A stretch of DNA of 64,000 nucleotides, from NCBI GenBank assembly GCA_020638655.1, contig JACKIC010000003.1, forward strand, positions 136,990 through 200,989. Reading direction: 5' to 3'. Position 1 is the first letter of the stretch, and each line of letters starts with the position of its first letter. Made by a program: the position numbers and the translations under genes. This DNA is from Planctomycetota bacterium (lineage in GTDB: Bacteria; Planctomycetota; UBA1135; UBA2386). The notes beneath the pieces are model-generated. The model saw only the letters and a program-made list of their open reading frames with translations, made no database searches and had not been told where the DNA came from. Positions 5,073 through 57,198 of the stretch are shown one piece after another.

Positions 5073-5166
5073 GCGGCGCGGAGGTTCTCCGTAGGGGTGG
5101 GGTGTGCGGCGCCGCGCCGCGCGCACTACACTGCCCGCCTTCCTCACCCCGCAACGGAGACCTCGA

Positions 5167-8016: not shown

Positions 8017-8162
8017 GAGGGCTCGGCGCCGATGGGGGTGTGGGGGATTGGGGTCGGCCCTCGCCGAGTCCGACCAGAGGGCCGGGGTCCGTGCGCTCGT
8101 TCCGCCCCCGCTGATTCGCAAGCAGATTGCGGGCAGCCCGAGAGTTGTGGCGGCGCCGCAGT

Positions 8163-27661: not shown

Positions 27662-29383
27662 TCACTCAGTGTCGAGCGGCCGCTTCGCGAGTTTGCGCAG
27701 CGCCGCGCGCAGCTTCTTGTGGGCGTCGAGGCGCCGCACGTAGTCCGACTCGCGCGGGCCGCCCTTGGCGCGCGCGACCTCGGCCAGGTCCTGTAGTTCG
27801 CCCGCGCTCCAGTCGCTGACGCCGGGCAGGCACAGGATCAGCGGGCTCCAGCGCTGCCAGGCGCGCCGCTCGTCCTTGGACCAGCGCGTCCAGTCGCGCG
27901 CGCCGCAGAGCTCGGCGGCCTCGTCGGCGCAGACCTCGAGGCCGCGCTCGCGGTCGGCGCCGAAGCGCCGCGCCAGCAGGTCGGTAACGGCGACGCCGAG
28001 GTTGGCGATCGGGAACACGCCGACGACGTCGTCGCGCGTCTTGCCCGTCGACCAGTAGACGTTGTGCTCGGCGAGCTGCTGCAGCGTCGCGATCGAGGTG
28101 CGGTGGCCGGGCTTCTTGCGCATCTTCGCGAGCTCGCGTTCCATCGCCTTCAGGACCTGCGGGTCGCGCGCCCGGAAACCGAGCTTCTGGTAGAACCACC
28201 ACGCGCCCGACTGCAGGCCCTCGTCGTTGCCGCCGCCGCCCAGCTGATACGGGTAGATCGCGAAGGTGTCCGAGCCGTAGAGCTGCTGGGTCACCGCCAG
28301 CGCGCGGCCGTAGACGTGGCCGGCTTCGCCGCCGCGCCACGTGTCGAAGACGTTGTAGGCGACCTCGCTGCTGCCGAACAGGCCGCTGGTCAGCACGTAG
28401 CCGATCGGGACGCCGTTCTTGAGCGTCAGGTAGGCGTAGACGCCCTCGACGAGCAGTCGCCGATCGGGCCGCATGCCGACGACGGCGAACTCGAGCCCGT
28501 CCCCGCACTCGAACAGGCGCACGTCGCGCGGATCGCCGTAGGCGAACGCGTCGAGGTCGCGGTGGCGCACCACCATGGCGTCGCGGGCCAGCGCGATGAC
28601 GCGCGCGCCGTTCTTGTCGTTGAGTTCGACCTCGCGGGCACGGAACTTCACCGCCTGCTTCAGGTCGGGACGCGCGCGCTGCAGCGGCTCGACCTGGTAG
28701 TGCACGGGGCGGCCGTGCAGCAGCGCCCGCGATCGCGACGGCGCGCCGATCCGCGGCAGCAGGTCGAACTCGAAGTCGAGCTCCTCGAGGAAGGTCTCGC
28801 GCTCCTGCTCGGTGCGGCCGAGCCGCGCGCAGCGTTCGATCACGAAGTCCGCATCGGTCGTGCTCGGGCCGGCGAGGCGCCGGATCCACTCCTGCACGCT
28901 CCACTCGACCTCGTCGAGGCCGGGGGTCTCGGGCCACGTGGCCAGCAGCGCCAGCCGCTGCGCCAGTAGCTCCTCCTTCTCGAAGCTGTCCCAGACGATC
29001 TCGAGCGCGCCGGGCAGGCGCCGCGACAGCCAGATCGCGGTCGTCGCGAAGAACGCGAAGCGCGTCGTCGTGCCGGCGATGCCCGTGTCGCGCAGCGCCT
29101 CGCGGTGCGCGAGCAGGTCGTCGCGCGAGTCGAACCGGTCGAGGCACTCGACGACCTTGTCCAGCAGCGCGGCGTGGTCGGGGTAGGCGCGCAGGTGGCA
29201 CAGCACCTCGTGCAGGCGCTGCACGTCGTCGGCCGAGCGCAGGCGGCTGTGTTCGAGGAGGCGCAGCAGCTCGAACTTGCGGTCGCCGGAGCCGTCGCCG
29301 AAGTGGGAGGCGAGCTGCTCGAGCTCGGCGAGCAGCTTCTTCGAGGAGTCGCGGGTCGCGGACGTCTTGTTGACCTTGGCCAC
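27662..29383 (-). CDS. Large conserved-hypothetical protein with an embedded GNAT-like acyltransferase motif
   Basis: GTG 29383 is the only start near the ORF top. Composition is balanced (E/L/D/R). The segment ...GVPIGYVLTS...GGEAGHVYGRALAV...GAWWFYQKLGFR resembles the GNAT core. The N- and C-terminal helical regions are unassigned. Confidence 0.6.
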   Translation of the reverse strand: MAKVNKTSATRDSSKKLLAELEQLASHFGDGSGDRKFELLRLLEHSRLRSADDVQRLHEVLCHLRAYPDHAALLDKVVECLDRFDSRDDLLAHREALRDTGIAGTTTRFAFFATTAIWLSRRLPGALEIVWDSFEKEELLAQRLALLATWPETPGLDEVEWSVQEWIRRLAGPSTTDADFVIERCARLGRTEQERETFLEELDFEFDLLPRIGAPSRSRALLHGRPVHYQVEPLQRARPDLKQAVKFRAREVELNDKNGARVIALARDAMVVRHRDLDAFAYGDPRDVRLFECGDGLEFAVVGMRPDRRLLVEGVYAYLTLKNGVPIGYVLTSGLFGSSEVAYNVFDTWRGGEAGHVYGRALAVTQQLYGSDTFAIYPYQLGGGGNDEGLQSGAWWFYQKLGFRARDPQVLKAMERELAKMRKKPGHRTSIATLQQLAEHNVYWSTGKTRDDVVGVFPIANLGVAVTDLLARRFGADRERGLEVCADEAAELCGARDWTRWSKDERRAWQRWSPLILCLPGVSDWSAGELQDLAEVARAKGGPRESDYVRRLDAHKKLRAALRKLAKRPLDTE

Positions 29384-29534: not shown

Positions 29535-31050
29535 TCAGTTGCCGATCAGCATGCCGGTGGCGTCCGACATCACCGCGCCGGCCGCGTTGGCCGCGAAGTC
29601 GATGACGATCGCCTGGTTGAAGAACTGCTGGCCCGAGAATGCCGGGTTGTTCGGGATGCTGAAGTTCCACACGACCTGGTTGTTGACGCCGGTCAGGAAC
29701 AGCGGCGCCTCGGTGGAGACGCGCAGGAAGCAACCCGCAGCGCCGAGTGAGGTCAGGTCGAGCGGCAGCGGGCCGAACAGCGACGTCGAGTTGCCGTAGC
29801 CGGTGACCATGATCGCGTTCGACAGGGGCAGGTTGTCGACGGTGATGCTCAGGTTGGTGCCGACGAGCGGCGCGCCGCTCGGCGTCAGCGCCGAGACCTG
29901 GCCCAGCGAGTTGGCGCAGCCGGTGCCGGCGAAGCCGATGCTCGCGGCGCCGTCATCGCTCCACGTCGAGTAGTGGAACGCGCCGTTGAAGACGCGCGGC
30001 GAGTTGGCGCCGGTGCCGAACAGGTTGTACTTGCCGAGGCCGCCGGCGACCGTCGGGTTGGGGCTGATCACCATGTTGGCGTCCGCGAACGGCCCCCAGT
30101 TGGCGGCCGAGCCGGTCGTGTAGCAAACACCCGCGCTGCCGGTCTGGAACGTCATCATCACCGCGAGGCTGAAGTTGCCCTGGGGCAGGTAGGCGGTGGT
30201 GTTGAGCGGCACGAACGTCAGCTGCGAGGTGGTGGTGGTGCCACCGACCGAGGTCGCCGTGCCGGTGCCGATCAGGCGCCAGGCGCTGGGCACCTGGTGA
30301 CGCACGACGCCGCCGACGAGGTCGAGGTAGCTGCCGTCCGAGGCGTACAGGTCCATCGTGAACGGACCGCTGTAGTTGTAGGGACGGCAGGTCACGCCGC
30401 AGATCTTGACGCCGTCGGGGTTGGTCACCTGCACGTCGAAGATGTTGCCGGCCGAGGCGCCGGTCGTGCCGTTGCCGCCCGAGTTGGCCGCGGCCAGCGT
30501 GCTCGGGGTGAGCACGATCGTATCCGTGGCAGTCGACGGGGCGCCGCACAGGCGGCTGGCCGTCAGCGTCACGTTCGCGGCGGTGCAGGTCGAGGCGTAG
30601 AAGTGCGCCGGGTTCTGCGTGGTGTCGTCGATGACGCTGTCACCGTCGAAGTCCCAGGCCCAGCTGGTCGGCGTCGGCACCGAGGTGTCGGTGAACAGCA
30701 CGACGCCCGGCGCGAGCAGCGAGTAGGTGAAGCTCGCGGCCACCGCGTCGGTGTTGATGTAGGCCGTGCGCGTGATCGTGTTCGGCGCGTGCGACGCGTC
30801 GACGACCGTCAGCGTGACGTCGTAGGAGCCGCAGTTGGGGTAGACGAACGTCGGGTTCTGCAGCGTGCTGTCGATGACGCTGTCGCCGTCGAAGTCCCAG
30901 GCCCAGCCGAGCACGCCGGCGGGGTCGCTGCTGTAGGAGTTGTCGCTGAAGTTGACGGACAGCGGCGAGGCGCCTCCTTGGACGTCGCTGCTGAACCCGG
31001 CGTAGAGGCCCTGCGCGGGCACATAGGTCACCTCGACGACGATGCCGTGG
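29535..31050 (-). repeat. Copy A of a ~1.5-kb tandemly duplicated segment (3' two-thirds of the PKD genes)
   Basis: By-eye alignment with 31993-33510 shows long identical runs (for example the first 50 nt, TCAGTTGCCGATCAGCATGCCGGTGGCGTCCGACATCACCGCGCCGGCC) and only scattered substitutions. Identity collapses 5' of ~31050/33510. Confidence 0.8.
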
Positions 31051-31685
31051 TTCGTCGTGGTGCCGTTGGGGGTCGGGTAGAGCGAACTCGAGAAGACGCG
31101 GCTCGACAGGGCCGTGGCCGTGCCGTCGATGTCCATGCTCGTCAGTGTGCCGCCCGAGAAGTTCGTGCCCCCCGGGAAGTCGGTGTCGATGGCGAGGTCG
31201 CCGGCGGCCGGGTCGTAGAGGAACGGCGTCGTGAAGGTCACGCCGACGTGCCAGGGGCCGGGCACACCCGTGCCGTTGCCGGTGCCGGGCAGGACGGTGA
31301 CAGGGCCGTTGTAGCAAACGGTGAGGTCAGGGCCGTGGTTGGCTGCGAACGACGCGCTCGTCACCGCGGCCTGATCGACCGCGGCGGTCGACAGGCTGAC
31401 CGTGCCCTGCGCGTAGGTGCCGCCGGTCCACGACGCGGTGCTGTCGTTGGCGCGCCAGCGCAGGCCCTGGATCAGGATCGGATAGTTGATCGACGCGGCG
31501 GTGAAGTTGGAGCTGTCGTAGCAGGCCAGGATCTTGAGGCCGGTCCAACCGGAGGCCGTGGTGCCCCAGGGGAAGGCGTTCGACGTGCTGCCGGCGGCGT
31601 TGGCCATGCCGACGGGAAGGACCGTGGTGAGCTGCGCGGTCGCGACGCTGGCGAGCGCGGCGACGGCGAGGAGGGTGCGTTGCAT
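29535..31685 (-). CDS. Exported multi-domain surface protein: N-terminal AFPWG domain, 2 PKD domains, beta-rich domain, C-terminal recurrent module (paralogue 1)
   Basis: ATG 31685 with signal peptide MQRTLLAVAALASVATAQ. The two PKD-type units carry WAWDFDGDSVID. The C-terminus is FAGTGCANSLG...PLPLDLTSLGAAGCFL...IPNNPAFSGQQFFNQAIVID...MLIGN. Confidence 0.85.
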   Translation of the reverse strand: MQRTLLAVAALASVATAQLTTVLPVGMANAAGSTSNAFPWGTTASGWTGLKILACYDSSNFTAASINYPILIQGLRWRANDSTASWTGGTYAQGTVSLSTAAVDQAAVTSASFAANHGPDLTVCYNGPVTVLPGTGNGTGVPGPWHVGVTFTTPFLYDPAAGDLAIDTDFPGGTNFSGGTLTSMDIDGTATALSSRVFSSSLYPTPNGTTTNHGIVVEVTYVPAQGLYAGFSSDVQGGASPLSVNFSDNSYSSDPAGVLGWAWDFDGDSVIDSTLQNPTFVYPNCGSYDVTLTVVDASHAPNTITRTAYINTDAVAASFTYSLLAPGVVLFTDTSVPTPTSWAWDFDGDSVIDDTTQNPAHFYASTCTAANVTLTASRLCGAPSTATDTIVLTPSTLAAANSGGNGTTGASAGNIFDVQVTNPDGVKICGVTCRPYNYSGPFTMDLYASDGSYLDLVGGVVRHQVPSAWRLIGTGTATSVGGTTTTSQLTFVPLNTTAYLPQGNFSLAVMMTFQTGSAGVCYTTGSAANWGPFADANMVISPNPTVAGGLGKYNLFGTGANSPRVFNGAFHYSTWSDDGAASIGFAGTGCANSLGQVSALTPSGAPLVGTNLSITVDNLPLSNAIMVTGYGNSTSLFGPLPLDLTSLGAAGCFLRVSTEAPLFLTGVNNQVVWNFSIPNNPAFSGQQFFNQAIVIDFAANAAGAVMSDATGMLIGN

Positions 31686-31992: not shown

Positions 31993-33510
31993 TCAGTTGC
32001 CGATCAGCATGCCGGTGGCGTCCGACATCACCGCGCCGGCCGAGTTGGCCGCGAAGTCGATGACGATCGCCTGGTTGTAGAACTGCTGGCCCGAGAACGC
32101 CGGGTTGTTCGGGATGTTGAAGTTCCAGACGATCTGGTTGTTGGCGCCGGCGACGAACAGCACCGCCTCGGTCGAGACGCGCAGGAAGCAGTCCGGCGCA
32201 CCGATCGAGGTGAGATCGAGCGGCAGCGGGCCGAACAGCGACGTCGTGTTGCCGTAGCCGGTGCACATGATCGCGTTCGACAGCGGCAGGTTGTCGGCCG
32301 TCAGCGTCAGGGTCGAGCCGACGGTCGGGTTGCCGCTCGGCGTCAGCGCCGAGACCTGGCCCAGCGAGTTGGCGCAGCCGGTGCCCGCGAAGCCGATGCC
32401 CGCGGCGCCGTCGTCGCTCCACGTCGAGTAGTGGAACCCGCCGTTGAAGACGCGCGGCGAGTTGGCGCCGGTGCCGAACAGGTTGTACTTGCCGAGGCCA
32501 CCAGCCACGGTCGGGTTGGGGCTGATCACCATGTTGGCGTCCGCGAACGGACCCCAGTTGGCGGCCGAGCCGGTCGTGTAGCAGACGCCGGCGCTGCCGG
32601 TCTGGAACGTCATCATCACCGCGAGGCTGAAGTTGCCCTGCGGCAGGTAGGCGTTGCTGGTCAGCGGCACGAAGGTCAGCTGCGAGGTGGTGGTGGTGCC
32701 ACCGACCGAGGTCGCGGTGCCGGTGCCGATCAGGCGCCAGGCGCTGGGCACCTGGTGACGCACGACGCCGCCGACGAGGTCGAGGTAGCTGCCGTCCGAG
32801 GCGTACAGGTCCATCGTGAACGGACCCGCGTAGTTGTAGGGACGGCAGGTCACGCCACAGATGTTGACGCCGTCGGGGTTGATCACCTGCACGTCGAAGA
32901 TGTTGCCGGCAGAGGCGCCGGTCGTGCCGTTGCCGCCCGCGTTGGCCGCGGCCAGCGTGCTCGGCGAGATCACGATCGCCTGGGTCGCGGTCGACGGGGC
33001 GCCGCACAGGCGGTTGGCCGTCAGGGTGACGGTCGCGCCGGTGCAGGCCGCCGCGTAGAAGTGCGCGGGGTTCTGCGTGGTGTCGTCGATGACGTTGTCA
33101 CCGTCGAAGTCCCAGGCCCAGCTGGTCGGCGTCGGCACCGAGGTGTCGGTGAACTGCATCACGCCCGGCGCGATCAGCGCGTAGGTGAAGCTCGCGGCCA
33201 CCGCGTCGGTGTTGATGTAGGCCGTGCGCGTCAGCGTGCTCGGCGAGTGCGAGGCGTCGACGACCGTCAGCGTGACGTCGTACGTGCCGCAGTTCTGGTA
33301 GACGAACGTCGGGTTCTGCAGCGTGCTGTCGACGACGCTGTCGCCGTCGAAGTCCCAGGCCCAGCCGAGCACGCCGGCGGGGTCGCTGCTGAAGGAGTTG
33401 TCGGTGAAGTTGACGGTCAGCGGCGAGGCGCCGCCCTGGACGTCGCTGCCGAAGCCCGCGTAGAGGCCCTGGGCCGGCACGTAGGTCACTTCGACCACGA
33501 CGCCGTGGCT
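31993..33510 (-). repeat. Copy B of the ~1.5-kb duplicated segment
   Basis: See copy A. The boundaries are approximate. Confidence 0.8.
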
Positions 33511-34137
33511 GGTGCCGATGGTGCCCGTCGTGTTCGGGTAGACCGTGGTGCTGCTGTTGTAGATGCGACTCGCCAGCGCGCCCGTCGACTGCACGTCGAG
33601 CTGCAGGCCGGGGTTGCCCGTGATCGGGCTGGTCGCCGGAGGCGGGATGTGGCTGAAGATGACCAGGTCGTTGCCGCTGGTCGGGTCGTAGAGGAAGTTG
33701 CTGGTCAGCGGCACGTCGACGGCCCAGATGCCGGGGGTCGAGGCCGTGACCGGCAGGACCGTGACCGGACCCGAGTAGACCTGCGTGAGGTCGGGGCCCA
33801 TGTTCGAGGCGAACGTCGTCGACGGCGTCAGCGCGTCGACCGTCGCCGTCGCCATGTCGACCGTGCACGAGCTGTACGTGCCGCCCGCCGAGGTCGCGCC
33901 GCCGTTGGCGCGGTAACGCAGACCTTGGATGATGATCGGGAAGTTCACGCCTTGCAGCGTGAAGTCGGTGCTGTCGTAGATCGTCTGGATCTCGAGCGAG
34001 CCCGTCGTGCCGCGGCCCCACGGGAACGCATTGCTGCTGTTGCCCTCGGTGGTGGCGGTGCCGTTCGGGATGACGACTGTGAATTGTGCGGTCGCGGCGC
34101 TGGCCAGCGCGACGATGGCGAGGAGTGAGCGTTGCAT
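31993..34137 (-). CDS. Exported multi-domain surface protein, tandem paralogue 2 of 29535-31685
   Basis: ATG 34137 with signal peptide MQRSLLAIVALASAATAQ. The architecture is the same as paralogue 1. The C-terminal ~500 aa are near-identical to paralogue 1 and the N-terminal ~210 aa have diverged. Confidence 0.85.
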   Translation of the reverse strand: MQRSLLAIVALASAATAQFTVVIPNGTATTEGNSSNAFPWGRGTTGSLEIQTIYDSTDFTLQGVNFPIIIQGLRYRANGGATSAGGTYSSCTVDMATATVDALTPSTTFASNMGPDLTQVYSGPVTVLPVTASTPGIWAVDVPLTSNFLYDPTSGNDLVIFSHIPPPATSPITGNPGLQLDVQSTGALASRIYNSSTTVYPNTTGTIGTSHGVVVEVTYVPAQGLYAGFGSDVQGGASPLTVNFTDNSFSSDPAGVLGWAWDFDGDSVVDSTLQNPTFVYQNCGTYDVTLTVVDASHSPSTLTRTAYINTDAVAASFTYALIAPGVMQFTDTSVPTPTSWAWDFDGDNVIDDTTQNPAHFYAAACTGATVTLTANRLCGAPSTATQAIVISPSTLAAANAGGNGTTGASAGNIFDVQVINPDGVNICGVTCRPYNYAGPFTMDLYASDGSYLDLVGGVVRHQVPSAWRLIGTGTATSVGGTTTTSQLTFVPLTSNAYLPQGNFSLAVMMTFQTGSAGVCYTTGSAANWGPFADANMVISPNPTVAGGLGKYNLFGTGANSPRVFNGGFHYSTWSDDGAAGIGFAGTGCANSLGQVSALTPSGNPTVGSTLTLTADNLPLSNAIMCTGYGNTTSLFGPLPLDLTSIGAPDCFLRVSTEAVLFVAGANNQIVWNFNIPNNPAFSGQQFYNQAIVIDFAANSAGAVMSDATGMLIGN

Positions 34138-37222: not shown

Positions 37223-38689
37223 TCAGTCCCAGCGCAGCGGGCTCTTGCGCGCGGCCGCGGGCTCGTCCTCGGCGGGTTCGGGGCGCGGCGCGGCGGGCTG
37301 CCGCTCCTCTTCGAGGCGGTCCGGGGTCAGCTCGAGCAGGATCGAGCGCGCGGCGCAGCAGCTGACGTCGCTGAGGTCGAGCAGCTGCTCCTCCTCGGCC
37401 GCGACGCCGTCGCCGTCGGCGGGGTCGAGCAGCTCCACGACCGGGCGCTGCGGGTCCTGGCTCTGGGACCGGACGACCGCGATCGCGCCGTCGTCGAGCT
37501 TGACGTGCTGGCCGATCGGGAAGATGCCGTTGATCTGCACGAAGCGGTTCAGCAGCCGCTGGTCGAGCTTGTCGCCCATCGCGATCATCACGCGGTAGGC
37601 GCGGATCGGGGACATCGGCCGCTTGTAGGGGCGGGCCGCCGTCAGGGCCTCGTAGATGTCGCAGATCTTGACGATGCTGGTGACCATCGTCGTCTCGTGC
37701 TCGTGCAGGGTGCGCGGGTAGCCGGTGCCGCCCGGGCCCCGGTGGTGACCAAAGGCCGCGGCGATCGCGAGCGGATCCGAGTCGGCGTGGTCGAGCAGGC
37801 ACTCGGCGCCCAGCGGCGCGTGGGTGTCCATGACGCGCCGCTCCTCGGCGCTCAGTGCGTTCTGCGAGTGCAGCAGCTCGAACGGGATCAGCGACTTGCC
37901 GACGTCGTGCAGCAGCGCGGCGGTGCCGATGCGGATCAGCAGCTCGCGGTCGTCGGTGAGCTCGCGCGCGAAGTTCATCGCCAGCACCGCGACCCGCACC
38001 GAGTGGCCGAACGTGAACGCGTCGTACTGGTCCTGGCGCGCGAGGCCGAGCACCGGCGCGTCCTTGCTCTCGAGTTGGGCCAGCACCTGTTCGGCGTGGG
38101 CCTGCACCGGCGCGAAGTCGATGCGCCCGCCGCGGCACACCGACACGGTGACGCTCTGCAGCAGGTCGACGACCGTCTGGTAGAACTGCACGCCGACGCG
38201 CATGCGCCCCGCCTTGGCGTTGCGTTCGGCGCCGGCCAGGCCGTCGTCGTACGGGGGCAGCAGGCGCAGGTTGCGGCACTGCTTGGCGACCAGCTGGGTG
38301 TTGAGCCAGGTGTAGTCCTTGCCCGGCTGCGGCTTGCTGCCGATGCCCGTGAGCAGCTCCTCGAGCTCGGTCGCGCTGGCCCCGTCCCACAGCTCGAGCC
38401 CGCCCGATCCCCATTGCTCGAGGCACTGGACCAGCCGCGCCGCGCCGATGCTCGCGCCCATCAGCGGCCGCTGGTCGAACACCACGAGCCCGTCGGCCAC
38501 GCCCAGGCACACCGGGTTGTTGCGCGACTCCTCGACCAGCTCGTGCAGGCGCTGCAGCACCGCCTGCACGGCGTCGCGCACGCGCGGATGGCTGCTGGCG
38601 TAGATCTTGGCGTTGACCAGGCAGACGACGAGCTCGTCGACGAGCTGGGTCGCCTGCGTCGTGACGTTCGTCTTGGCAACGGTGCTCAC
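37223..38689 (-). CDS. HD-GYP domain phosphodiesterase with N-terminal sensor-like domain
   Basis: GTG 38689 overlaps the upstream TGA (GTGA). The motifs are HDVGK and GHHRGPGGTGYP. The upstream part of ORF 37223-39094 is Arg-rich and overlaps the previous gene, so it was rejected. Confidence 0.85.
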   Translation of the reverse strand: MSTVAKTNVTTQATQLVDELVVCLVNAKIYASSHPRVRDAVQAVLQRLHELVEESRNNPVCLGVADGLVVFDQRPLMGASIGAARLVQCLEQWGSGGLELWDGASATELEELLTGIGSKPQPGKDYTWLNTQLVAKQCRNLRLLPPYDDGLAGAERNAKAGRMRVGVQFYQTVVDLLQSVTVSVCRGGRIDFAPVQAHAEQVLAQLESKDAPVLGLARQDQYDAFTFGHSVRVAVLAMNFARELTDDRELLIRIGTAALLHDVGKSLIPFELLHSQNALSAEERRVMDTHAPLGAECLLDHADSDPLAIAAAFGHHRGPGGTGYPRTLHEHETTMVTSIVKICDIYEALTAARPYKRPMSPIRAYRVMIAMGDKLDQRLLNRFVQINGIFPIGQHVKLDDGAIAVVRSQSQDPQRPVVELLDPADGDGVAAEEEQLLDLSDVSCCAARSILLELTPDRLEEERQPAAPRPEPAEDEPAAARKSPLRWD

Positions 38690-40653
38690 CGCGACCCTCC
38701 GCTCTCGATGGTGATCAGGGTCTCCGCCGCGACGCGCCGCACGGCGCGGGCCGCGCTGGAGAACTGGGTGAAGCGGCCGCGGCGCGAGAGTTCGAGCAGC
38801 AGCTGCTCGGTGTCGGGCGACGGCACGTGGCGCAGGTTGGCGATGGCCTCGACCAGGGTCGCCGTCGGCAACTCCTCGAGACCCGCCAGCACGTAGGCGC
38901 GCAGCGTCTCCTCGCTGAGGGTGCGCATGGTCGCATCGAAGCGGCCCTTGATCGCGGCCTCGAACAACGCCCGCAGGTAGCCGCGCGGCACGACCTCGGC
39001 GGGTTGCAGGCAGCTCAGGATCGCGCGCTCGGGGCTCGGCAGGTCGAGGCGGGACGTGTAGGCCACGACGCGCGCCAGGCACGTGTCCGGGCATTGCTCG
39101 GCGATCGCGGGCATCAGATGCAGCGCCACCTTGCCGCCCAACCGCAGCAGCGCCTCGACGACCTCCTCGGACTTCAGCACGCCGATCTGCTCGGCGGTCT
39201 CGGCGCCGCCGATCGCCAGCATCGGCGCCAGCGCCTCGAGCCCGCGGCGGAACTGGTCGATGTCGGGCTGTCGCGACATCAGCACCTTGGCAGCGATCGG
39301 CAGGGAGTGCGGGAAGCAGCGGGTCACGAAGTCGGCGTCGACGTAGCCGTAGTTGCGCACCGTCTCGGCCTGGCCGGCTTCGACCATCATCGCGATCAGC
39401 TGCGAGCGCAGCCGCTCGGGGATCGCGTTCGGCGTGCCCGGCTCCTGCAGGTAGGCGGCGATGCAGGCGAGCAGGCCGAGGTCCATGGTGCGCAGCTGCG
39501 CGACGATGTGGGCCCGGGCGGCGGCGCGCACCTCCTCGCGTTCGGTGTTGACGAAGGTGTGCAGGAAGATGCCGAACAGCTCGCGCGTGATCTTGGTCGC
39601 CGTCGCCTGCAGCTCGGTGGCGACCGGCAGGCGAACCTTGCGGCCGTCGGGCAGGGTCGCGAGCTCGCGCGTGAGCTCCTCGAGGCTCGCCTGGATGGCC
39701 TCGTCGCCGGGGCGGCCGCTGGGCAGGTTGTGGCGCACCGGCAGCTCGGGCGCCTCGGTCTGGAAGTACTTGCGCGCGACGCGCAGGGCGGTGCGCAGCA
39801 GGTCGCCTTCGTCGAGCCGCTCGCCGTCGCGCAGCGCGTTGGGCAGTTCGCGTTCGAGCGCCGCCAGGATCTCGACGATCTTCTCGGCTGCGACTTCGGG
39901 GTGGGCCGCGATCTCGGCGGGCAGCAGGTCGGCGATCGCCGCGAACAGGTCGAGCTCGTGGCCCATCTCGCCGGCGTGGCCGCAGGCGCCCTGCAGCGAG
40001 CTCATGCGTTCTTCGAGCCGCGTATCCCTGGCCAGGTGTTCGAGCACGGCGACGCGGCGCTTCTGCGCCGTCGCGTCCAGCGGTCCGAGGTTGCCCGCGC
40101 CGGCATCGGGGCCGCCCTGCCCCGTCTCACCGAACTCGCCGTCGGTCTCGCGGAACGTGCCGCTGAACACCAGGTCGTGCGCGCGGATGCGCGGGTGGGC
40201 GTCGGGCCACAGCGTGCGGAACGCCACGCCGGTGCGCGTGCGCGCCTGGTTGAGGGTCAGCGCGAACTCGACGATGTCCTGCGGCGTGCACGTCGGCTCG
40301 AAGGTGAAGCCGCGCAGGCCGGCGTCGCGCAGGCGGTTGAGCAGCCACGTCGCCTGGCCGTCCTCGGCGGGCAGGCGCAGGCTGTCGACCCACAGCTCGT
40401 CGCCGCGCTGGCCGATGGTCGTGGCGCGACGCTCTTCGAGCCCGGTGGCGAGTCGGCCGACGAAGTCCGCCGCGGCTGCGGTGACGCGCGGATGTTCGGG
40501 CGGGTAGATCGCGACGTTGCGCAGCGCGAGCGCCAGAGCGGTAGCTGTCGCGGCGGCCTCTCGATGGTCGCCGGTCAGGGTCACTTGGCGCTTTGGGTTC
40601 TCCCTACCCACAGGCGAGCTATCGGTCCGTCTCGCGGGGCATCTGGCGCCCAT
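38686..40653 (-). CDS. Hypothetical helical-repeat protein whose N-terminal domain is paralogous to that of the HD-GYP protein
   Basis: LALALRNVAIYPPEHPRVTAAAADFVGRL... aligns with LVVCLVNAKIYASSHPRVRDAVQAVLQRL... of the next gene. The rest is Leu/Ala/Glu-rich and helical. The start is uncertain: ATG 40653 or GTG 40584. Confidence 0.65.
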   Translation of the reverse strand: MGARCPARRTDSSPVGRENPKRQVTLTGDHREAAATATALALALRNVAIYPPEHPRVTAAAADFVGRLATGLEERRATTIGQRGDELWVDSLRLPAEDGQATWLLNRLRDAGLRGFTFEPTCTPQDIVEFALTLNQARTRTGVAFRTLWPDAHPRIRAHDLVFSGTFRETDGEFGETGQGGPDAGAGNLGPLDATAQKRRVAVLEHLARDTRLEERMSSLQGACGHAGEMGHELDLFAAIADLLPAEIAAHPEVAAEKIVEILAALERELPNALRDGERLDEGDLLRTALRVARKYFQTEAPELPVRHNLPSGRPGDEAIQASLEELTRELATLPDGRKVRLPVATELQATATKITRELFGIFLHTFVNTEREEVRAAARAHIVAQLRTMDLGLLACIAAYLQEPGTPNAIPERLRSQLIAMMVEAGQAETVRNYGYVDADFVTRCFPHSLPIAAKVLMSRQPDIDQFRRGLEALAPMLAIGGAETAEQIGVLKSEEVVEALLRLGGKVALHLMPAIAEQCPDTCLARVVAYTSRLDLPSPERAILSCLQPAEVVPRGYLRALFEAAIKGRFDATMRTLSEETLRAYVLAGLEELPTATLVEAIANLRHVPSPDTEQLLLELSRRGRFTQFSSAARAVRRVAAETLITIESGGSR

Positions 40654-41660: not shown

Positions 41661-42080
41661 TCAGAAGCCGTCGACCTGCAGGCCGTTCGTCGTCTCGACG
41701 GCGCGGCCGCGGCGGTTGAAGTCGATCGTGGCGGCCTGCAGGTGCACGGTGAACGGCACCGTCGACGGCAGGCGCAGGCCGAAGCTGGCGTTGCCCCGGC
41801 CGTCGGTGATGGTCGCCTCGGTGCCGCGCGGATCGACGAGCAGCATGCAGTTCGTGCCCGGCAGCGGCTGCGGGACCGCCGCCAGGCTGCCCAGGACCAG
41901 GACGGTGACGGTGTTGGGCGAGGCGTGCGCCACGCGCAGGCGCAACCCAGCGCCGAGCGGCGTGTTGACGACCTGCCCGTGCAAGGTGCCGCCGCAGCGC
42001 ACACCGAACGGGGTCACCGTGTAGGTCTGGGCGAAGGCGGGCGCGCAGAGCAGCGCGGCGCAGAGGAGTTTGCTGAGCAT
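41661..42080 (-). CDS. Small exported protein consisting only of signal peptide plus the recurrent module
   Basis: ATG 42080 with signal peptide MLSKLLCAALLCAPAFAQ. The mature ~120 aa (TPFGVRCGG...TPLGAGLRLRV...PQPLPGTNCMLLV...DGRGNASFGLRLPSTVP...HLQAATIDF...) align with the C-termini of the large repeat proteins. Confidence 0.7.
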   Translation of the reverse strand: MLSKLLCAALLCAPAFAQTYTVTPFGVRCGGTLHGQVVNTPLGAGLRLRVAHASPNTVTVLVLGSLAAVPQPLPGTNCMLLVDPRGTEATITDGRGNASFGLRLPSTVPFTVHLQAATIDFNRRGRAVETTNGLQVDGF

Positions 42081-48179: not shown

Positions 48180-48303
48180 CGGGGTCGGATGGTAACAGGC
48201 GACCTGTTCGCGACATGCACCGAGCTGGCTGCGGGGCGCCACGATCGCGCAACAGTTCGGTCGCGCCGGCGGCCGCGCGGCCCTGGTGGTATGGTGCCGC
48301 CCC

Positions 48304-49938
48304 ATGCTGCTACGAACTGTCCTGGCCGGGAGCCTCGTCCTGGCCGCGGTCGTCGCCCAGGCGCCGCCTGGCTTCAAGACCTACGAGAACAAGCTCTCCG
48401 AACTGGTCTTCTACTACCCCGTCGTCTACCAGGAGGTGCCGGTCCCGCCGACCGAGCAGACCCTGGTCGCGCGCTACGTGCTCAAGGACAAGCCGCGCGA
48501 GCTCAAGAAGGTCGACGACCGCGTCTACAAGGCCGTCGAGCCGCAGCTCTACTTCTACAATTTCGAACTGCCGCAGGCGGTCACCGGCGCGCGCCCCGCG
48601 GACACCGCGGAGGACGGCAAGCCGACGACCGTGCGCGAGGCGATGGAGGCGAGCAGCCGGGTGTCGTCGTGGGAGGAGTTCGCCAAGCGGTTCGCCAACT
48701 GGCACCTGCAGGAGGACGCCAAGAACCCCGGCAACTTCGACATGGTGTTCGAGGGCCGGTGGCAGATCCCCGACGCCAAGCCGGTCGGCCGGCTGGTCAA
48801 GCTGCAGGAAGGCAACGTCATCTACGGCGCGTACGGCTTCGCCCTGAGCCCCTACCAGAAGGTCTTCGACCGCCACTTCGACAAGCTCGCCAAGGGCATC
48901 GAGCTCGGCGACGGCGCCGACGACGCCAGCGAGCGCGCCAGCGAGCGCATCGACCGCATCTACGCGAGCGGCGAGTACAGCGCGGTCGAGCTGCGCAAGA
49001 AGGCGCGCGTCGAGATGGCGCGCGGCTGGAAGGCGTACGACACGCCCAACTACCTGATCGTGCACCACTCGAAGAACGATGGCCTGATCAAGCGCATCGG
49101 CCGGGACATCGAGGCGATGCGCTCGCTCTACATGGAGCTGTTCCCGCCGACCAAGCCGGTCGACGCGGTCAGCATCGTGCGCGTCTGCCGCACCAAGGAG
49201 GAGTACGCCCAGTACGGCGGCCCGCCCGGCTCCGGCGGCTATTGGCACCCGGGCAACGAGGAGCTCGTCTTCTACGACTACTCGTACACGATGAAGACGC
49301 TCGACGACGACGAGCGCAAGGCGATGGGCAAGCGCAAGCTCACCGACGACGACTCGCTGCTCGTGCTCTACCACGAGGCCTTCCACCAGTACATCTTCTA
49401 CGCGGTCGGCGAGTTCGCGCCGCACGACTGGTTCAACGAGGGCTACGGCGACTACTTCTCGGGCACCGACATCGGCAAGTCGTCGGGCAAGGTGCAGGGC
49501 ATCGACCCGAGCCCCTGGCGCATCCACCTCGCCAAGGACATGTGCGAGTACGGCGAGGGCTTCGTGCCGCTCAAGGAGATCCTCAACGCCGAGCGCGCCG
49601 TGTTCTACAACCGCGCGCGCATCGGCTTCTTCTACGCCGGCGCGTGGTCGTTCATCTACTTCCTCAAGCAGTGCCCGGAGGTGCAGTCGCACCCCAAGTG
49701 GGCCGCGCTGCTGCAGACCTACTTCGACACCGCCAAGGCCGCGTACGCCGAAGAGCTGGCCAAGCTCGGCGAGAACCCCGACCTGAGCAAGAAGCAGGTC
49801 GCGCAGTTCATGGCCCGCAAGGCGGCGCTCAAGGCCGCGCTCGACGGCGTCGACCTCGACGAACTCGAGAAGGCGTGGAAGAAGTACGTCGTCGAGATGA
49901 AGGACCCGTGGCCGTCGCAGCGCAAGAAGCACAAGTAG
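48304..49938 (+). CDS. Exported putative zinc metallopeptidase-like protein (DUF1570-like, HExxH)
   Basis: ATG 48304 with signal peptide MLLRTVLAGSLVLAAVVAQA. It has the motif LYHEAFHQY followed by NEGYGDYF. The K/E/Y/F-rich composition is clearly coding in this GC-rich genome. Confidence 0.75.
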   Translation: MLLRTVLAGSLVLAAVVAQAPPGFKTYENKLSELVFYYPVVYQEVPVPPTEQTLVARYVLKDKPRELKKVDDRVYKAVEPQLYFYNFELPQAVTGARPADTAEDGKPTTVREAMEASSRVSSWEEFAKRFANWHLQEDAKNPGNFDMVFEGRWQIPDAKPVGRLVKLQEGNVIYGAYGFALSPYQKVFDRHFDKLAKGIELGDGADDASERASERIDRIYASGEYSAVELRKKARVEMARGWKAYDTPNYLIVHHSKNDGLIKRIGRDIEAMRSLYMELFPPTKPVDAVSIVRVCRTKEEYAQYGGPPGSGGYWHPGNEELVFYDYSYTMKTLDDDERKAMGKRKLTDDDSLLVLYHEAFHQYIFYAVGEFAPHDWFNEGYGDYFSGTDIGKSSGKVQGIDPSPWRIHLAKDMCEYGEGFVPLKEILNAERAVFYNRARIGFFYAGAWSFIYFLKQCPEVQSHPKWAALLQTYFDTAKAAYAEELAKLGENPDLSKKQVAQFMARKAALKAALDGVDLDELEKAWKKYVVEMKDPWPSQRKKHK

Positions 49939-49963: not shown

Positions 49964-51499
49964 ATGCACCTGCACCGCACCTTCGCCGCTCTCCCGTTGC
50001 TCGCGCTCGCGCTGCCCGCGCAGTCGATCCTCTCCAGCCACCTCGTGAGCCTCGACCGCTCACCGCTGCCGCTGATGCGCGCGGCGGCGGACACCGACGG
50101 CGACGGGGTCGCCGACTTCCTGAGCTACGTGCGCATCGAGATCTCCCCCGGCGTGAGCGGCTACGAGGTCGTGCTGGCGTCGGGCGCCAGCGCGGCGCCG
50201 CTGCACACGTTCACGGCCAACGACTTCTCGGAGGTCAGGGACTGCGTCGGCTTCGGCGACGCCGATCTCGATGGCCGCGGTGACGTTGCCGTGGTGACGA
50301 TCGGCTCGTTGTACGTCTACTCGGGAGCGACCGGCAACCAACTCTACGTTCTGCCGGCGGGGTCGGGCTTCCAGTACCGGGGGATCACGGCGATCGGGGA
50401 CTGGAACGGTGACGGCCGCGCCGACGTCGCCGTGGTGCTCTACGGCAACGGCACCAACGTGGTGCGTCTGTTGCAGGGCCAGAGCGGCAATCTGCTGGCG
50501 ACGTCGGCGCCGATCCAGAACAACAACGCCGACGCCGAGATCCGCGCGATCGGCGACATCGACAACGACGGCCGTCAGGACGTGGTCGTCACCACGCGTC
50601 GCTACGACACGCACGTCTTGCAGACCAACCCGATGCTCGAGGTGCGAACGCTGGGGCTCACCGGCAGCGACAGTCGTCACCTTCGCGTCGCCGACCTCGA
50701 CGGCGACGGCATCGCCGAGCTCCTGCTGCATCGCGATGGCAATGCGGGCAACGGCACGCTCGGGCGCGTCGAGGTCGTCGACGCGATGACCGGCAATCTG
50801 CGACTCACGCTGCGCGCGCAGCAGCCGTTCGAGACCGGCATGGGCGTGGACGTCGCGCCGGTCGGGGATCTCGATCACGATGGCATGGTCGATCTCGCCG
50901 TGATCGTGACGGCTGCCAACGGCCCGATGCTGCGCGCGTCGTCCGGGCGGACGGGCGCGCGGCTGTGGGGCTTTGGCGACTCTCCCTACGTGCACGTGGG
51001 CAGCGCGCTGTGCGCGCTCGGCGACGTCGACGCCGACGGCTACGGCGACTTCGCGGTCGCCGCGACGGTAATGCTCGGTCGCGAAGGTTGGTGGGTGACG
51101 TCGGGCAAGGTGCTCGCCGACGTCACCGTGCAGACCGGTGCCTGCGGCGCGGGGCCGATCCTGCCGCGCAACCTCATGTCGCGGCCGATCCTCGGCCAGC
51201 CCGTGACGATCCTGGGCTTCGACGGGCCCGCCAACACCAACGGGTTGTTGCTGTTCAGCCTGCGTCCGAGCGCGCCGACCTACCTCGGCGCGAGTTCGTG
51301 CTTCGCCTGGTTCGCCTACGGCAACGCCTCGGTGCTGCAGGTGCTGACGGGGCCGCAGTGGAGCTTCACCGTGGGTCTGCCGCTGGTGCCGCAGCTCGCG
51401 GGACTCGAGGTTGCCGTGCAGAGCTACTACGCCCCGACCGCAGGGCCGCTCGGCTACGACCTCGGCAACGGCATCTGGGCGCGATTCGGGTACCAGTAG
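49964..51499 (+). CDS. Exported FG-GAP/VCBS repeat protein with C-terminal recurrent module
   Basis: The signal peptide is MHLHRTFAALPLLALALPAQS. The repeats are DTDGDGVADF, DADLDGRGDV, DWNGDGRADV, DIDNDGRQDV, DLDGDGIAEL, DLDHDGMVDL and DVDADGYGDF. The C-terminus is TGACGAGP...PILGQPVTILGFDGP...GASSCFAWF...LPLVPQLAGLEVAVQSYY... Confidence 0.85.
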   Translation: MHLHRTFAALPLLALALPAQSILSSHLVSLDRSPLPLMRAAADTDGDGVADFLSYVRIEISPGVSGYEVVLASGASAAPLHTFTANDFSEVRDCVGFGDADLDGRGDVAVVTIGSLYVYSGATGNQLYVLPAGSGFQYRGITAIGDWNGDGRADVAVVLYGNGTNVVRLLQGQSGNLLATSAPIQNNNADAEIRAIGDIDNDGRQDVVVTTRRYDTHVLQTNPMLEVRTLGLTGSDSRHLRVADLDGDGIAELLLHRDGNAGNGTLGRVEVVDAMTGNLRLTLRAQQPFETGMGVDVAPVGDLDHDGMVDLAVIVTAANGPMLRASSGRTGARLWGFGDSPYVHVGSALCALGDVDADGYGDFAVAATVMLGREGWWVTSGKVLADVTVQTGACGAGPILPRNLMSRPILGQPVTILGFDGPANTNGLLLFSLRPSAPTYLGASSCFAWFAYGNASVLQVLTGPQWSFTVGLPLVPQLAGLEVAVQSYYAPTAGPLGYDLGNGIWARFGYQ

Positions 51500-52245
51500 T
51501 CCGACGCGGCGACCGTCTCTGCGATCGCCTTCGATCACCCGCAGCATGGCGGCCGCCGCGGATCACTGGATCCAGACGTCGAGGCCGCTGGTCGCCGAGA
51601 ACCCCGTGCTGCTGCCCGGCGAGAAGTAGCCGGCCTGGAAGTAGAGGTGCAGGTCGCCGAACGCGGCCACGGGCGGCACCGCGAACGGCACCACGAGGCG
51701 GCCCTGGGCGTCGAGGCGGTGCGAGATCGACACCGTCATGTTGGTCAGCACGTCGACGCCGGCGATCTGCCAGTTGGCCGGGAACGTGCCCATCGCGAAC
51801 GCGCCGAGCGCGTTCGGTTCGCCTTGCACGGTCATCGTGAAGGTCTGGCCGAGGCGCGCGCAGCCGACCGCGGTCAGCGTCGGCGTGAGGCTCGCGCCGG
51901 GCGTGGCCCGACCGTAGCTCGTGATCGTGCCGCAGGTCGCGCCCAGGCGCATCGCGACGAGGCTGCCGTTGCCGCCCGTGAACAGGAAGTCGCCGCTGAT
52001 CGGGTCGATCGCGCCGCCGCCGTTGGAGCCCAGGCCGGTCAGCACCATCTGGCGCGTGTTCGGCAGCGGGTCGCCGTTGCCGTCGGTCCGGTAGGCGGTG
52101 ATGCCGGCGTTCCACTCGCAGACCATCACGCAGTCGCCGAGCAGCGGCGCGGTGACGGGCGGGTAGAGGATGCCTTCGGGCCCGCCCTGGATCTGCACGG
52201 GCGGCGCGCTGATCGTCGGCGCGAACGTGCCGTTGCCGTCCGGCG

Positions 52246-54480
<2,235 letters not shown>

Positions 54481-54732: not shown

Positions 54733-56049
54733 TCACGTTCCCAGCGAGCGCGCCAGCCGCAGCCCCGTGAACTGCCAGCGCTTCTCGGGCTGGAAGAAGT
54801 TGCGGTAGGTGGGCCGGAAGTGCTCGCGCGGCGTCGCTACCGAGCCGCCGCGCAGGACGTTCTGGCCGCTCATGAACTTGCCGTTGTACTCGCCGAGCGC
54901 GCCTTCCAGCGGGCGGTAGCCCGGATAGGGCAGATACGCGGACGAGGTCCACTCCCAGGCGTCGCCGTACATCTGCCGCAGCCCCTCGGCGTCGTCGGGC
55001 GCCGCGCGCACGTGCAGGACCTGGTCGCCGAACAGGTTCGCGGCCGCGAGCGCCTCGCCCTGGTCGAGCTGCGCCGCGGCGTGCTCCCACTCGAACTCGG
55101 TCGGAAGGCGCGCCCCGGCCCAGCGCGCGAAGGCGTCGCTCTCGAAGCCGCTGACGTGCACGACGGGCGCGTCGGGCTCGAGCGGCGCGCGGCCGTGCAG
55201 GGTCGTCTCGCTCCAGCCGTCGCCGTCGCGTTCCCAATAGAGCGGCGCATACCAGCCCAGGCGCTGCACGGCGCTCCAGCCGTCGGACAGCCACAGCTCG
55301 GCGCGCGCGTAGCCGCCGTCCTCGACGAACTGCAGGTACTCGGCGTTGGTCACCAGCCGGTCGGCGAGGTCGAACGGCTCGAGCCAGACGCGGTGGCGCG
55401 GGGTCTCGTTGTCGAAGCCGAAGCCGGCGCCGTCGTGGCCGATCTCGACCAGCCCGCCGTCGAAGCGTCGCCACCGCGCGGCGCCGCGGTGCGTCGCGAT
55501 CCCGGCCGCGCCGCGCGCGGCGGGCTCGGGCGCCGGTCGGTACGCGGGGCGCTCGGGATTGCTGGCCAGGATGTGCTTGATGTCGGTCACGAGCAGCTCT
55601 TGGTGCTGTTGTTCGTGCTGCAGGCCGAGCTCGACGATCGCGGCGACCTTGGCCGGCAGGCCGGCGGCGAGCAGCTCGTGCATCTGCTCGTCGACGGCGC
55701 GGCGGTACTCGTGCACCCGCGCCAGCGTCGGCCGCGACAGCGCGCCGCGTGCGGCGCGTTCGGCGCGCGGCCCGACGGCTTCGTAGTAGGAGTTGAACAG
55801 GAAGCCGAAGTGCGGGTCGAACGGCCGGTGGTTCGCGGCGTTCGGCGCGAGCACGAAGGTCTCGAAGAACCAGGTGGTGTGCGCGAGGTGCCACTTCGGC
55901 GGCGAGACGTCGTCGATGGTCTGGACGACGTGGTCTTCGACGCACAGGGGCGCGGTGATCGCTTCGGTTCGCCGCCGCACCTGCTGGTAACGCGACGCGT
56001 CCACGACGGTGGTGTCGGTCGGGGGGCGCATCGGCGCAGGATGGGCCAC
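54733..56049 (-). CDS. egtB: Ergothioneine biosynthesis sulfoxide synthase EgtB (DinB_2 plus FGE-sulfatase domains)
   Basis: It has PPKWHLAHTTWFFETF, LGLQHEQQHQELL, the FGE-like core GDAWEWTSS and RGGS. The start is GTG 56049 or ATG 56031. Confidence 0.85.
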   Translation of the reverse strand: MAHPAPMRPPTDTTVVDASRYQQVRRRTEAITAPLCVEDHVVQTIDDVSPPKWHLAHTTWFFETFVLAPNAANHRPFDPHFGFLFNSYYEAVGPRAERAARGALSRPTLARVHEYRRAVDEQMHELLAAGLPAKVAAIVELGLQHEQQHQELLVTDIKHILASNPERPAYRPAPEPAARGAAGIATHRGAARWRRFDGGLVEIGHDGAGFGFDNETPRHRVWLEPFDLADRLVTNAEYLQFVEDGGYARAELWLSDGWSAVQRLGWYAPLYWERDGDGWSETTLHGRAPLEPDAPVVHVSGFESDAFARWAGARLPTEFEWEHAAAQLDQGEALAAANLFGDQVLHVRAAPDDAEGLRQMYGDAWEWTSSAYLPYPGYRPLEGALGEYNGKFMSGQNVLRGGSVATPREHFRPTYRNFFQPEKRWQFTGLRLARSLGT

Positions 56050-56082
56050 GACCCGGGGTGGTTCAACCGTTCGCGCCGAACC

Positions 56083-57198
56083 TCACTTCTTCGCGCCCGC
56101 GCGAGCCGGGGCGAAACGGCGGATGCACGCGCCCGCGACCGCGTCGCAGGCGGCGCCGGCCTCACCTTGGTTGCACGTGACGAGCACCCCGAACTTCGCT
56201 TCGGGGGCCAGCCACGCGACGCAGTACCACATGGTGTTGCTGCCCGAATGCGAGAGGATCGGGCCCTTGGCCCAGGGGCGGGTGGTGACGCCCCAGCCCA
56301 GCGCGTAGTCGGCGCCTTCGGGCGGCGTGTGCAGCTCGCGCAGGCGTTCGGCCGTGACCAGCGGCTCGTCGCCGGCGACGACGCCCAGGTGCAGCGCCGC
56401 GAACTTCGCCCAGTCGGCCAGCGTGCAGTGCACGGTGCCCGCGGGGCCCAGCGCCGGCGGGTTGTCACCGAAGATCGGCACGGGGCCCTTGGGTCCGGGG
56501 CGGTGCCCCCACGGCTGCGAGGTGTCGTCCTTGCTGCCCGGCGGACCGAAACCGGCGCTGCGCATGCCCAGCGGCGTGAACAGCTGGCGCTGCATCAGCT
56601 CCTCCCAGCTCGCGTCGGCGGCGCGCTCGGCGATCGCGCCGGCGATCATGTAGCTCGCGTTGGAGTAGAGGTAGCGCTCGCCGAGCGGCGCCTCGGGAGC
56701 GATGCCGAGCATCGCCGTCGCGACCTCGCGACGCGCCTCGCGCGTCGTGCCCTCGTAGCGGAACAGTTCGCGCCACAGCGGCTGCGGCGGGCCGCCGGGC
56801 AGGCCGGCGCGGTGCGTGAGCAGGTGCCGCACGGTGATCGCGCGCGCGTGTTCGTCGAACTTGCCGGCGAGGTCGGGCAGGCCGGCGGCGACGGTCGTCG
56901 ACCACTGCAGCTTGCCGGCGTCGACCTGCTGTGCGAGCAGCGTCGCGGTCATCGCCTTGGTGCAGGAGCCGAGGTGCCACAGGTCGTCCGTGGTGACCTT
57001 CTCTTCGTGGCCCTGGCGGCGCACGCCGGTGACGCCGAGCGCGACGACGGCGCCGTCGCGGATCACGGCGGCGCCGAGCGCGGGCACGCCATGCTCGGCG
57101 CGGATCGGCTCGAGCAGTGCGGCGAGGTCGGCGCGTTCCTGGGCGCAGAGCGCGCCCGAGAGCGCGGCGAAGGTGGCGAGGAGGTGGCTGGCGCGCAT
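56083..57198 (-). CDS. Exported serine hydrolase, beta-lactamase/transpeptidase-like (class C family)
   Basis: The signal peptide is MRASHLLATFAALSGALCAQ. The motifs are SxxK (SCTK) and YxN (YSN). Confidence 0.85.
   Translation of the reverse strand: MRASHLLATFAALSGALCAQERADLAALLEPIRAEHGVPALGAAVIRDGAVVALGVTGVRRQGHEEKVTTDDLWHLGSCTKAMTATLLAQQVDAGKLQWSTTVAAGLPDLAGKFDEHARAITVRHLLTHRAGLPGGPPQPLWRELFRYEGTTREARREVATAMLGIAPEAPLGERYLYSNASYMIAGAIAERAADASWEELMQRQLFTPLGMRSAGFGPPGSKDDTSQPWGHRPGPKGPVPIFGDNPPALGPAGTVHCTLADWAKFAALHLGVVAGDEPLVTAERLRELHTPPEGADYALGWGVTTRPWAKGPILSHSGSNTMWYCVAWLAPEAKFGVLVTCNQGEAGAACDAVAGACIRRFAPARAGAKK

Follow-up and report, generated by a model that had tools for sequence, protein, structure and literature searches.

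What does a domain do that recurs at the very end of many otherwise unrelated exported proteins? The question is raised by a 64,000-nucleotide stretch of DNA from a Planctomycetota bacterium (GenBank assembly GCA_020638655.1, contig JACKIC010000003.1, positions 136,990 to 200,989 of the forward strand), which we call the window and from whose first letter all coordinates below are counted. An initial annotation, made from the letters alone, had proposed that at least nine proteins encoded here share a C-terminal module, and that this module serves either for sorting or anchoring or for ligand binding. By BLAST, profile, and profile–profile (hhalign) comparison, nine open reading frames (ORFs) of the window do end in one homologous module of ~115–130 amino acids, one of the nine copies being only probable. 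The module belongs to a genuine, very large, Planctomycetota-restricted domain family that is not covered by Pfam or NCBIfam and is new as a family. It may act as a folded C-terminal handle for surface targeting or anchoring, a reading that we weigh below against its alternatives.

One module at the end of nine exported proteins

The window has a G+C content of 71.5%, and spurious ORFs are abundant in it. The nine ORFs translate cleanly at exactly the coordinates first assigned to them, and their G+C content at third codon positions (GC3), 0.91–0.96, marks them as real genes. We label the copies A to I. On the forward strand, module A (500–886) closes an ORF (2–892) whose 5′ end is cut by the window edge and whose cargo, the part of the protein that precedes the module, has no Pfam match. 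Modules B (21838–22131, ORF 20317–22140) and C (51131–51490, ORF 49964–51499) follow FG-GAP cargo, assigned to FG-GAP_3 in the case of C, and module D (26907–27296, ORF 25101–27302) follows an RCC1 β-propeller (Pfam RCC1_2, 1.3e-101) after a linker of only ~8 residues from the last blade. On the reverse strand, E (29541–29927, ORF 29535–31685) and F (31999–32385, ORF 31993–34137) are the modules of tandem paralogs with PKD cargo (Pfam PKD_4 for E), and G (51569–51916, ORF 51563–52762) again has cargo without a Pfam match. The FG-GAP, RCC1, and PKD calls of the initial annotation were therefore confirmed by Pfam. The two remaining proteins, in which it had seen a signal peptide plus the module alone, are indeed of this form: H (module 41673–42008, ORF 41661–42080, 139 aa, hypothetical protein H6838_07970 at NCBI) and I (module 57248–57676, ORF 57242–57757, 171 aa, hypothetical protein H6838_08020), both on the reverse strand and both without a match in the Pfam scan. 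All eight complete window copies bear Sec-type signal peptides.

E and F share 85% identity in their modules and are almost identical over long internal stretches; apart from the two PKD domains, most of each 715-aa protein (~230 N-terminal residues and ~270 residues preceding the module) is without a Pfam match. In the I protein, ~18 residues are inserted (HTHNFAQQIAWPQIGLGF) and a second Cys pair (HTQCGFVGC) lies close to the C-terminus; neither feature occurs in any other copy. The mature part of I contains no Arg, Lys, or Glu.

When the last 135 residues are compared by BLAST, modules A, D, E, and F match one another with E values from 1e-10 to 1e-25. Weaker links join G to A (1e-6), I to E (8e-4), and B to G (2e-3); for C and H, the E values are ~0.3–3. 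A profile built from the window alone reaches A, D, E, F, and G, so that pairwise BLAST and this profile did not place B, C, H, and I, and external homologs were needed. A collection of 5.8 billion proteins yielded 56 homologs of A, D, E, F, and G, all annotated as "hypothetical" and all from metagenome-assembled genomes (MAGs) of Planctomycetota. A profile made of external sequences only matches D (5.6e-46), F (3.9e-45), E (6e-44), A (1.6e-31), and G (3.4e-9), and it recovers I (5.9e-6) and C (1.1e-4, in register) over the full module length, ending at the C-terminus.

For H, four orthologs were found across MAGs at 55–91% identity. The profile of these five sequences aligns with the external module profile at an hhalign probability of 94% (E = 1.3e-7), and the alignment spans all of the landmarks (FG.xC, LG, PxPLP, GxxC, the D turn, LP, and Q); in the combined profile, H is matched with an independent E value (iE) of 3e-20. 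The Cys-less and divergent copy B is the least certain. As a single sequence it aligns to a profile from which it was excluded with a probability of 86% (hhalign, E = 5e-6; hmmsearch iE 2.3e-3), and as a family with its two homologs the probability is 72%. From these comparisons, we consider eight copies statistically secure and B a probable copy, the weakest of the nine.

Of the 473 six-frame ORFs in the window with a length of 60 aa or more, the combined profile matches these nine and no others; no tenth copy was found among them. We asked whether the similarity might be an artefact of low-complexity, high-GC composition, given the base composition of the window and a module rich in Ala, Gly, Leu, and Pro. 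Such an origin has virtually no chance of being correct: so few matches among ORFs of the same composition rule out compositional bias, E values reach 1e-46 after bias correction, the copies match in register, the G, P, C, P, and Q columns being invariant, and the structure prediction described next is confident (pLDDT 97.5).

Predicted fold and extent of the family

The β-sandwich suspected in the initial annotation is borne out by AlphaFold2 (AF2) models. With a 47-sequence alignment, the D module is predicted as an all-β domain with eight main strands (pLDDT 97.5, pTM 0.89), and whole H as a signal-peptide helix (residues 2–10) followed by a ten-strand sandwich (residues 20–138, pLDDT 87.9 overall). 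In the models, the last ~10 residues are themselves a β-strand of the sandwich. Foldseek searches with the two models against the PDB, and a search of the viral library BFVD, gave no match at E ≤ 1e-3. The neighbors in the PDB were generic sandwiches with query TM scores of at most 0.52: MG domains of TEP1 and complement, SoxYZ, antibody V domains, the N-terminal domain of βGRP, Ig-like domains of glycosidases including GH2 and GH158 enzymes, and lytic polysaccharide monooxygenases (LPMOs). The Big-1, FN3, and Ig neighbors in BFVD were equally weak. The βGRP domain (3aqx_B, CBM39) reached a target TM score of 0.63, but with E = 0.029 and 11% identity. Sequence-profile matches to PDB entries (complement C3 MG, DUF3992) had E values of at least 0.19 and were rejected as noise. 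As modeled, the module thus belongs to the Ig-like β-sandwich fold class in a generic sense only.

The most conserved columns are G4-C5-G7, P20, G23, P34, G43, P55, G62-P64-G65-C66, P92, Q105, D110, and N114. These columns, like the conserved motifs FGxGC, GPLPLDL..GMPGC, IPNxP, and DPxxN, lie mostly outside the predicted strands, and such conserved loops fit a recognition surface in the model. The two Cys columns are present together in 184 sequences and lost together in two, as would be expected of a disulfide formed outside the cytoplasm; this covariation suggests that the FGxGC and GMPGC cysteines are probably linked in most members. The initial annotation had counted three copies without the Cys pair. 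Only B and G lack it, the first Cys of C being shifted by one column, and P0047, a homolog of G, lacks both Cys as well.

When 1.84 billion representatives were searched exhaustively with HMMER, the family came to 17,577 clusters (50% identity) at E ≤ 1e-3 and to 8,893 clusters at E ≤ 1e-10. No named family claims it, and the initial annotation had assigned it to none: nothing matched in Pfam-A, NCBIfam r20, or PDB sequences. At E ≤ 1, no Pfam or NCBIfam model covers the C-terminal regions of the nine full proteins, and 47 isolated modules matched no C-terminal domain (CTD) or carbohydrate-binding module (CBM) model of Pfam. All named sources are Planctomycetota MAGs. A consensus sequence was also scanned against the GTDB species, each represented by one genome, and the 27 loci confirmed in this way are all from Planctomycetota MAGs too. 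The MAGs of these loci have 64–72% G+C, the module again sits at the stop codon, and two adjacent module genes, a tandem duplication, occur at five of the loci.

Position and copy number were counted in 143 newly returned top-hit representatives. The module ends 1–2 residues before the stop in 134 of the 143 and 0–14 residues before it in 140, and not one of these proteins holds two copies. A domain that is strictly terminal and never duplicated behaves like a sorting domain, unlike spacer Ig repeats or carbohydrate-binding modules.

The cargo bears out the view that unrelated exported proteins carry the module. Among 81 long representatives, a Pfam census returned PKD (28), RCC1 (24), Kelch (6), DUF5122/Rax2 propellers (4), and formylglycine-generating enzyme (FGE) domains (3), as well as WD40, TIG, and InlB-B repeats. 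Across the family, the cargo shows hundreds of different binding-scaffold architectures; for all this diversity it is of one kind, namely extracellular-type binding scaffolds. The proteins also share a composition. In the nine window proteins, 4.7–15.3% of residues are charged, Lys makes up at most 0.8%, and Ser, Thr, Asn, and Gly together make up 27–39%, as compared with 19–30% charged residues in soluble neighbors. A cyclophilin (Lys 10%) and the product of ORF 48286–49935, both exported and module-less, fall with the soluble neighbors, so the module marks a distinct subset of the exported proteins. Across 140 representatives, Lys accounts for 0.2% of the module and 0.5% of the cargo. A low-charge composition is typical of extracellular and surface proteins such as adhesins and passenger domains.

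The signal peptides share a feature of their own. Every one predicted in the window ends in A-x-A followed by Gln (for example, CFA|QAPS, ATA|QLTT, and IAA|QGKR), those of module-less exported proteins included. They lie at the N-termini of the ORFs starting at 5104, 20317, 25101, 48286, and 49964 on the forward strand and at 31685, 34137, 41581, 42080, 52762, and 57757 on the reverse strand. In 66 of 115 family members from other MAGs, an uncharged hydrophobic region (h-region) is directly followed by Gln, against a background Gln frequency of 3.2%. The pattern looks like the "Q-rule" of pyroglutamate N-termini, which one study reported as Bacteroidetes-specific (PMC5837995).

What the module may do

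Taken together, the terminal position, the conserved loops, and the cargo suggest to us a folded C-terminal handle for surface targeting or anchoring, comparable in logic to the CTD found in type IX secretion systems (T9SS), and we regard this as about an even call. The Sec signal peptide would export the protein to the periplasm, where the sandwich would fold and oxidize. The folded module would then be a common handle for one shared partner, which might be an outer-membrane machine for export or attachment or else a receptor or polymer of the cell surface. Many different binding proteins of the β-propeller and PKD kinds would in this way be displayed on or outside the cell, and a domain unrelated to the T9SS CTD would follow the same logic in another phylum. 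We infer both the recognition of a partner and the surface localization of the module proteins. The arrangement of the genes is in keeping with such a scheme. Nine module genes in 64 kb, about one gene in six of the window, are scattered among unrelated genes, and this density and scatter, along with frequent tandem duplication, are what one typically sees in cargo families whose machine is encoded elsewhere. A more specific proposal, which we hold tentatively and think rather doubtful, is that this Planctomycetota lineage has an as yet undescribed pathway of outer-membrane export or surface attachment that recognizes a folded, disulfide-bonded sandwich, making it an independent analogue of the T9SS CTD route with a very large propeller and PKD cargo.

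Several observations weigh against a targeting handle, or against its strict form as a secretion signal. In three of the 143 representatives (P0131, P0144, and P0155) the module is not terminal but is followed each time by an FGE/SUMF1 domain, the architecture being otherwise canonical (signal peptide, optional cargo, module); a free C-terminus is therefore not strictly needed, and this suits a binding domain somewhat better than it does a secretion signal. The stand-alone proteins H, I, P0080, and P0194 have no cargo to be sorted. P0080 and P0194 are genuine signal-peptide-bearing forms within the canonical subfamily, and H is kept across MAGs. A domain conserved without cargo must act on its own. 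Together, the FGE fusions and the cargo-less proteins fit a domain for binding or anchoring. Among the window genes there is no sortase-like, secretin, PorU/PorV-like, or SprA-like gene and no dedicated translocon gene, and no enzymes were seen among the sampled cargo, in a sample biased toward the top-scoring subfamily. Finally, it is from composition only that we infer the localization of these proteins.

The FGE fusions (P0131, P0144, and P0155/P0213, all from outside the window) are annotated at NCBI as "formylglycine-generating enzyme family protein", with the same domain after the module each time. They brought up the idea of an FGE-mediated modification of the module Cys, which was rejected because neither Cys lies in a CxPxR context.

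The observations just listed are accommodated in part by a ligand-binding sandwich, lectin- or CBM-like, that would target the propellers not to the cell's own envelope but to an external polymer, for instance a polysaccharide of algae or biofilms, or to the surface of prey. Secreted stand-alone copies would be natural for such a domain, an internal position before an FGE domain is tolerated (the FGE domain itself has a C-type-lectin-like fold), and the weak structural neighbors include glycan-binding and glycosidase-associated sandwiches (βGRP, GH2, GH158, LPMOs). Every one of those structural matches is nonsignificant, though, and carbohydrate-binding modules are not normally confined to the end of a protein, are often duplicated, and usually stand beside enzymes, whereas the module is terminal in 98% of cases, is never duplicated, and was not seen with enzyme cargo. 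We therefore consider a lectin- or CBM-like role unlikely. The data lean toward sorting or anchoring over ligand binding, the two options left by the initial annotation, without settling the matter: the module occurs strictly at the end of the protein and once only, and its cargo forms a distinct class of low charge.

One terminal module per protein, conserved loop motifs, conserved free-standing copies, and very many paralogs per genome could also be accounted for by docking or self-assembly, in the manner of cohesin–dockerin pairs or S-layers. The module proteins would then join a common scaffold or surface coat, with the stand-alone copies as caps or fillers. This seems to us quite unlikely: the all-β module is unlike the Ca-binding fold of dockerin, neither the window nor the fetched loci showed a scaffold protein with repeated partner domains, and there is no evidence of oligomerization. 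We think it improbable that the module only stabilizes β-propeller and PKD proteins, as a structural C-terminal cap or an intramolecular chaperone, with no targeting role. The short linker after the last blade in D and the prevalence of propellers among the cargo are what such a cap would predict, but the module is also attached to unrelated folds (PKD, FGE, and unknown β-rich domains), exists alone behind a signal peptide, and has loop motifs more conserved than a generic cap needs.

Planctomycetota genomes encode many large exported proteins that are annotated only as hypothetical. With more than 17,000 clusters, about one in six genes of the window, and no Pfam or NCBIfam model, the module represents an annotation gap of practical size, and a model of it would label tens of thousands of proteins. 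In the literature searched, we found neither a description of this module nor any planctomycete C-terminal sorting domain or folded C-terminal tag, and nothing on outer-membrane protein export or surface attachment in Planctomycetota. Should the module prove to be a handle for sorting or anchoring, export signals in the form of a folded C-terminal domain would have a second, independent example, the module would define the surface proteome of a lineage that is uncultured, and profiling genes against module copy number would offer a direct computational route to the machinery. If it is a ligand-binding sandwich, it would be a new but ordinary domain family.

Neighboring genes and comparison with known systems

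The genes among which the module genes lie in the window encode DUF885, SDR, EamA, MFS, and GFO/IDH proteins, an HD-domain protein, the cyclophilin, an RND efflux pair, a DEAD helicase, an EgtB-like enzyme, a β-lactamase-fold protein, a Ser/Thr kinase, and a TIGR04325 methyltransferase, and Rfam identified no RNA family in the window. Immediately upstream of B lies a hybrid cluster of nonribosomal peptide synthetase (NRPS) and polyketide synthase (PKS) genes (8127–20058, forward strand) for an adenylation–acyl carrier protein (ACP) protein, a 1677-aa PKS (ketosynthase–acyltransferase–ACP–aminotransferase), and a 1935-aa NRPS (condensation–adenylation–thiolation...thiolation–thioesterase); the long ORFs listed here overlap, and their true starts need refinement. 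Directly downstream of I, on the same strand (54736–57198, reverse), are a DinB_2 plus FGE-sulfatase protein, which has the architecture of an EgtB-like sulfoxide synthase, and the β-lactamase-fold protein; no functional link of either to I is evident. Coding-type GC3 without a Pfam or NCBIfam match is seen in ORFs 4299–5069 and 48286–49935 (forward) and 6908–7876, 27665–29383, and 38689–40653 (reverse). The 48286–49935 product has a signal peptide and a Lys-rich C-terminus. The HD-domain ORF (37226–39094) overlaps 38689–40653 by ~400 nucleotides, so one of the two starts is wrong.

Outside the window, one locus places a family member between two secretin genes. On a 7.19 Mb contig (ENA ERZ25074583 ctg10031; locus L028, 187–15087), the order is a TPR-secretin, a 949-aa TPR protein, an unknown 390-aa protein, MotA/ExbB, two ExbD proteins, the module protein P0018, a globin–ankyrin protein, and a second secretin, with the same synteny at a second locus (L029). 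A secretin with a motor driven by the proton motive force is the kind of machine that a folded C-terminal signal could use. As the machine of this module, however, the secretin and ExbB–ExbD set was rejected: P0018 has no signal peptide, an upstream stop bounds its ORF, and a 730-aa member falls in the same 90% cluster. P0018 is probably a gene remnant, and its adjacency to the secretins may be due to chance. Nothing like a secretin or ExbB–ExbD adjoins H or I in the window.

Among known domains, the Ig-like, FN3, and MG domains (TEP1, complement C3/C5 MG, SoxYZ, the CBM39 of βGRP, Big-1) share the sandwich architecture of the module, with Foldseek probabilities up to 1.0 and query TM scores of 0.4–0.52. 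The identities are only 6–17%, the E values stay above the threshold given earlier, and those domains occur in tandem or internally rather than as a single terminal tag. The tripartite sorting signals (LPXTG/sortase, PEP-CTERM/exosortase, MYXO-CTERM/myxosortase, and GlyGly-CTERM/rhombosortase) are ~25–35 residues long and combine a motif, a transmembrane helix, and a basic tail. Like the module, they are C-terminal tags common to many unrelated exported proteins of one lineage. The module, in contrast, is a soluble β domain of 115–130 residues without transmembrane helix or basic tail, just as the initial annotation had argued in setting it apart from the PEP-CTERM, MYXO-CTERM, and LPXTG types. 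The window proteins end in ...LIGN, ...TVGG, ...VVGN, ...WIQ, ...VDGF, ...TIGL, and the like, and none of the NCBIfam sorting-signal models matched the nine proteins. The last residue in the 143 representatives is mostly N, R, L, Q, G, or S. The C-terminal β-signal of autotransporters and other outer-membrane proteins was rejected as an explanation: only 10 of the 143 end in Phe or Trp, and 115–130 aa, predicted as a sandwich, are too few for a barrel.

The closest parallel is the T9SS. Its CTD is likewise a folded, Ig-like C-terminal signal (PMC4804311, PMC11285876), present as a β-sandwich at the extreme C-terminus of Sec-exported proteins, in one copy each, on many unrelated cargos, in dozens or more proteins per genome, and encoded away from the machine. 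A small T9SS protein consisting of little more than a CTD is known in PorA (PMC7712824), and signal peptides commonly expose Gln at +1 in both lineages (PMC5837995). In the T9SS, the CTD is taken off by the PorU sortase, and the cargo is either linked to A-LPS or released. The T9SS is, however, described as confined to Bacteroidota (PMC10202324), whereas the module occurs only in Planctomycetota among named sources. The module has no sequence match to the CTD models (TIGR04183/PF18962 for type A, TIGR04131/PF13585 for type B), no T9SS CTD is found among the top 50 Foldseek PDB matches of either structural model, and no T9SS component (SprA, PorV, PorU, PorKLMN/GldKLMN) is encoded among the window genes. 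In size and topology, 115–130 aa with 8–10 predicted strands stand against a compact 3 + 4 seven-strand sandwich (PMC11285876), which leans against membership, and the probable conserved disulfide is a feature of the module. On sequence and phylum, then, the module is not a member of the T9SS CTD family. It shares with that family its position and its logic, and by this analogy it is a new variant of the idea of a folded C-terminal tag.

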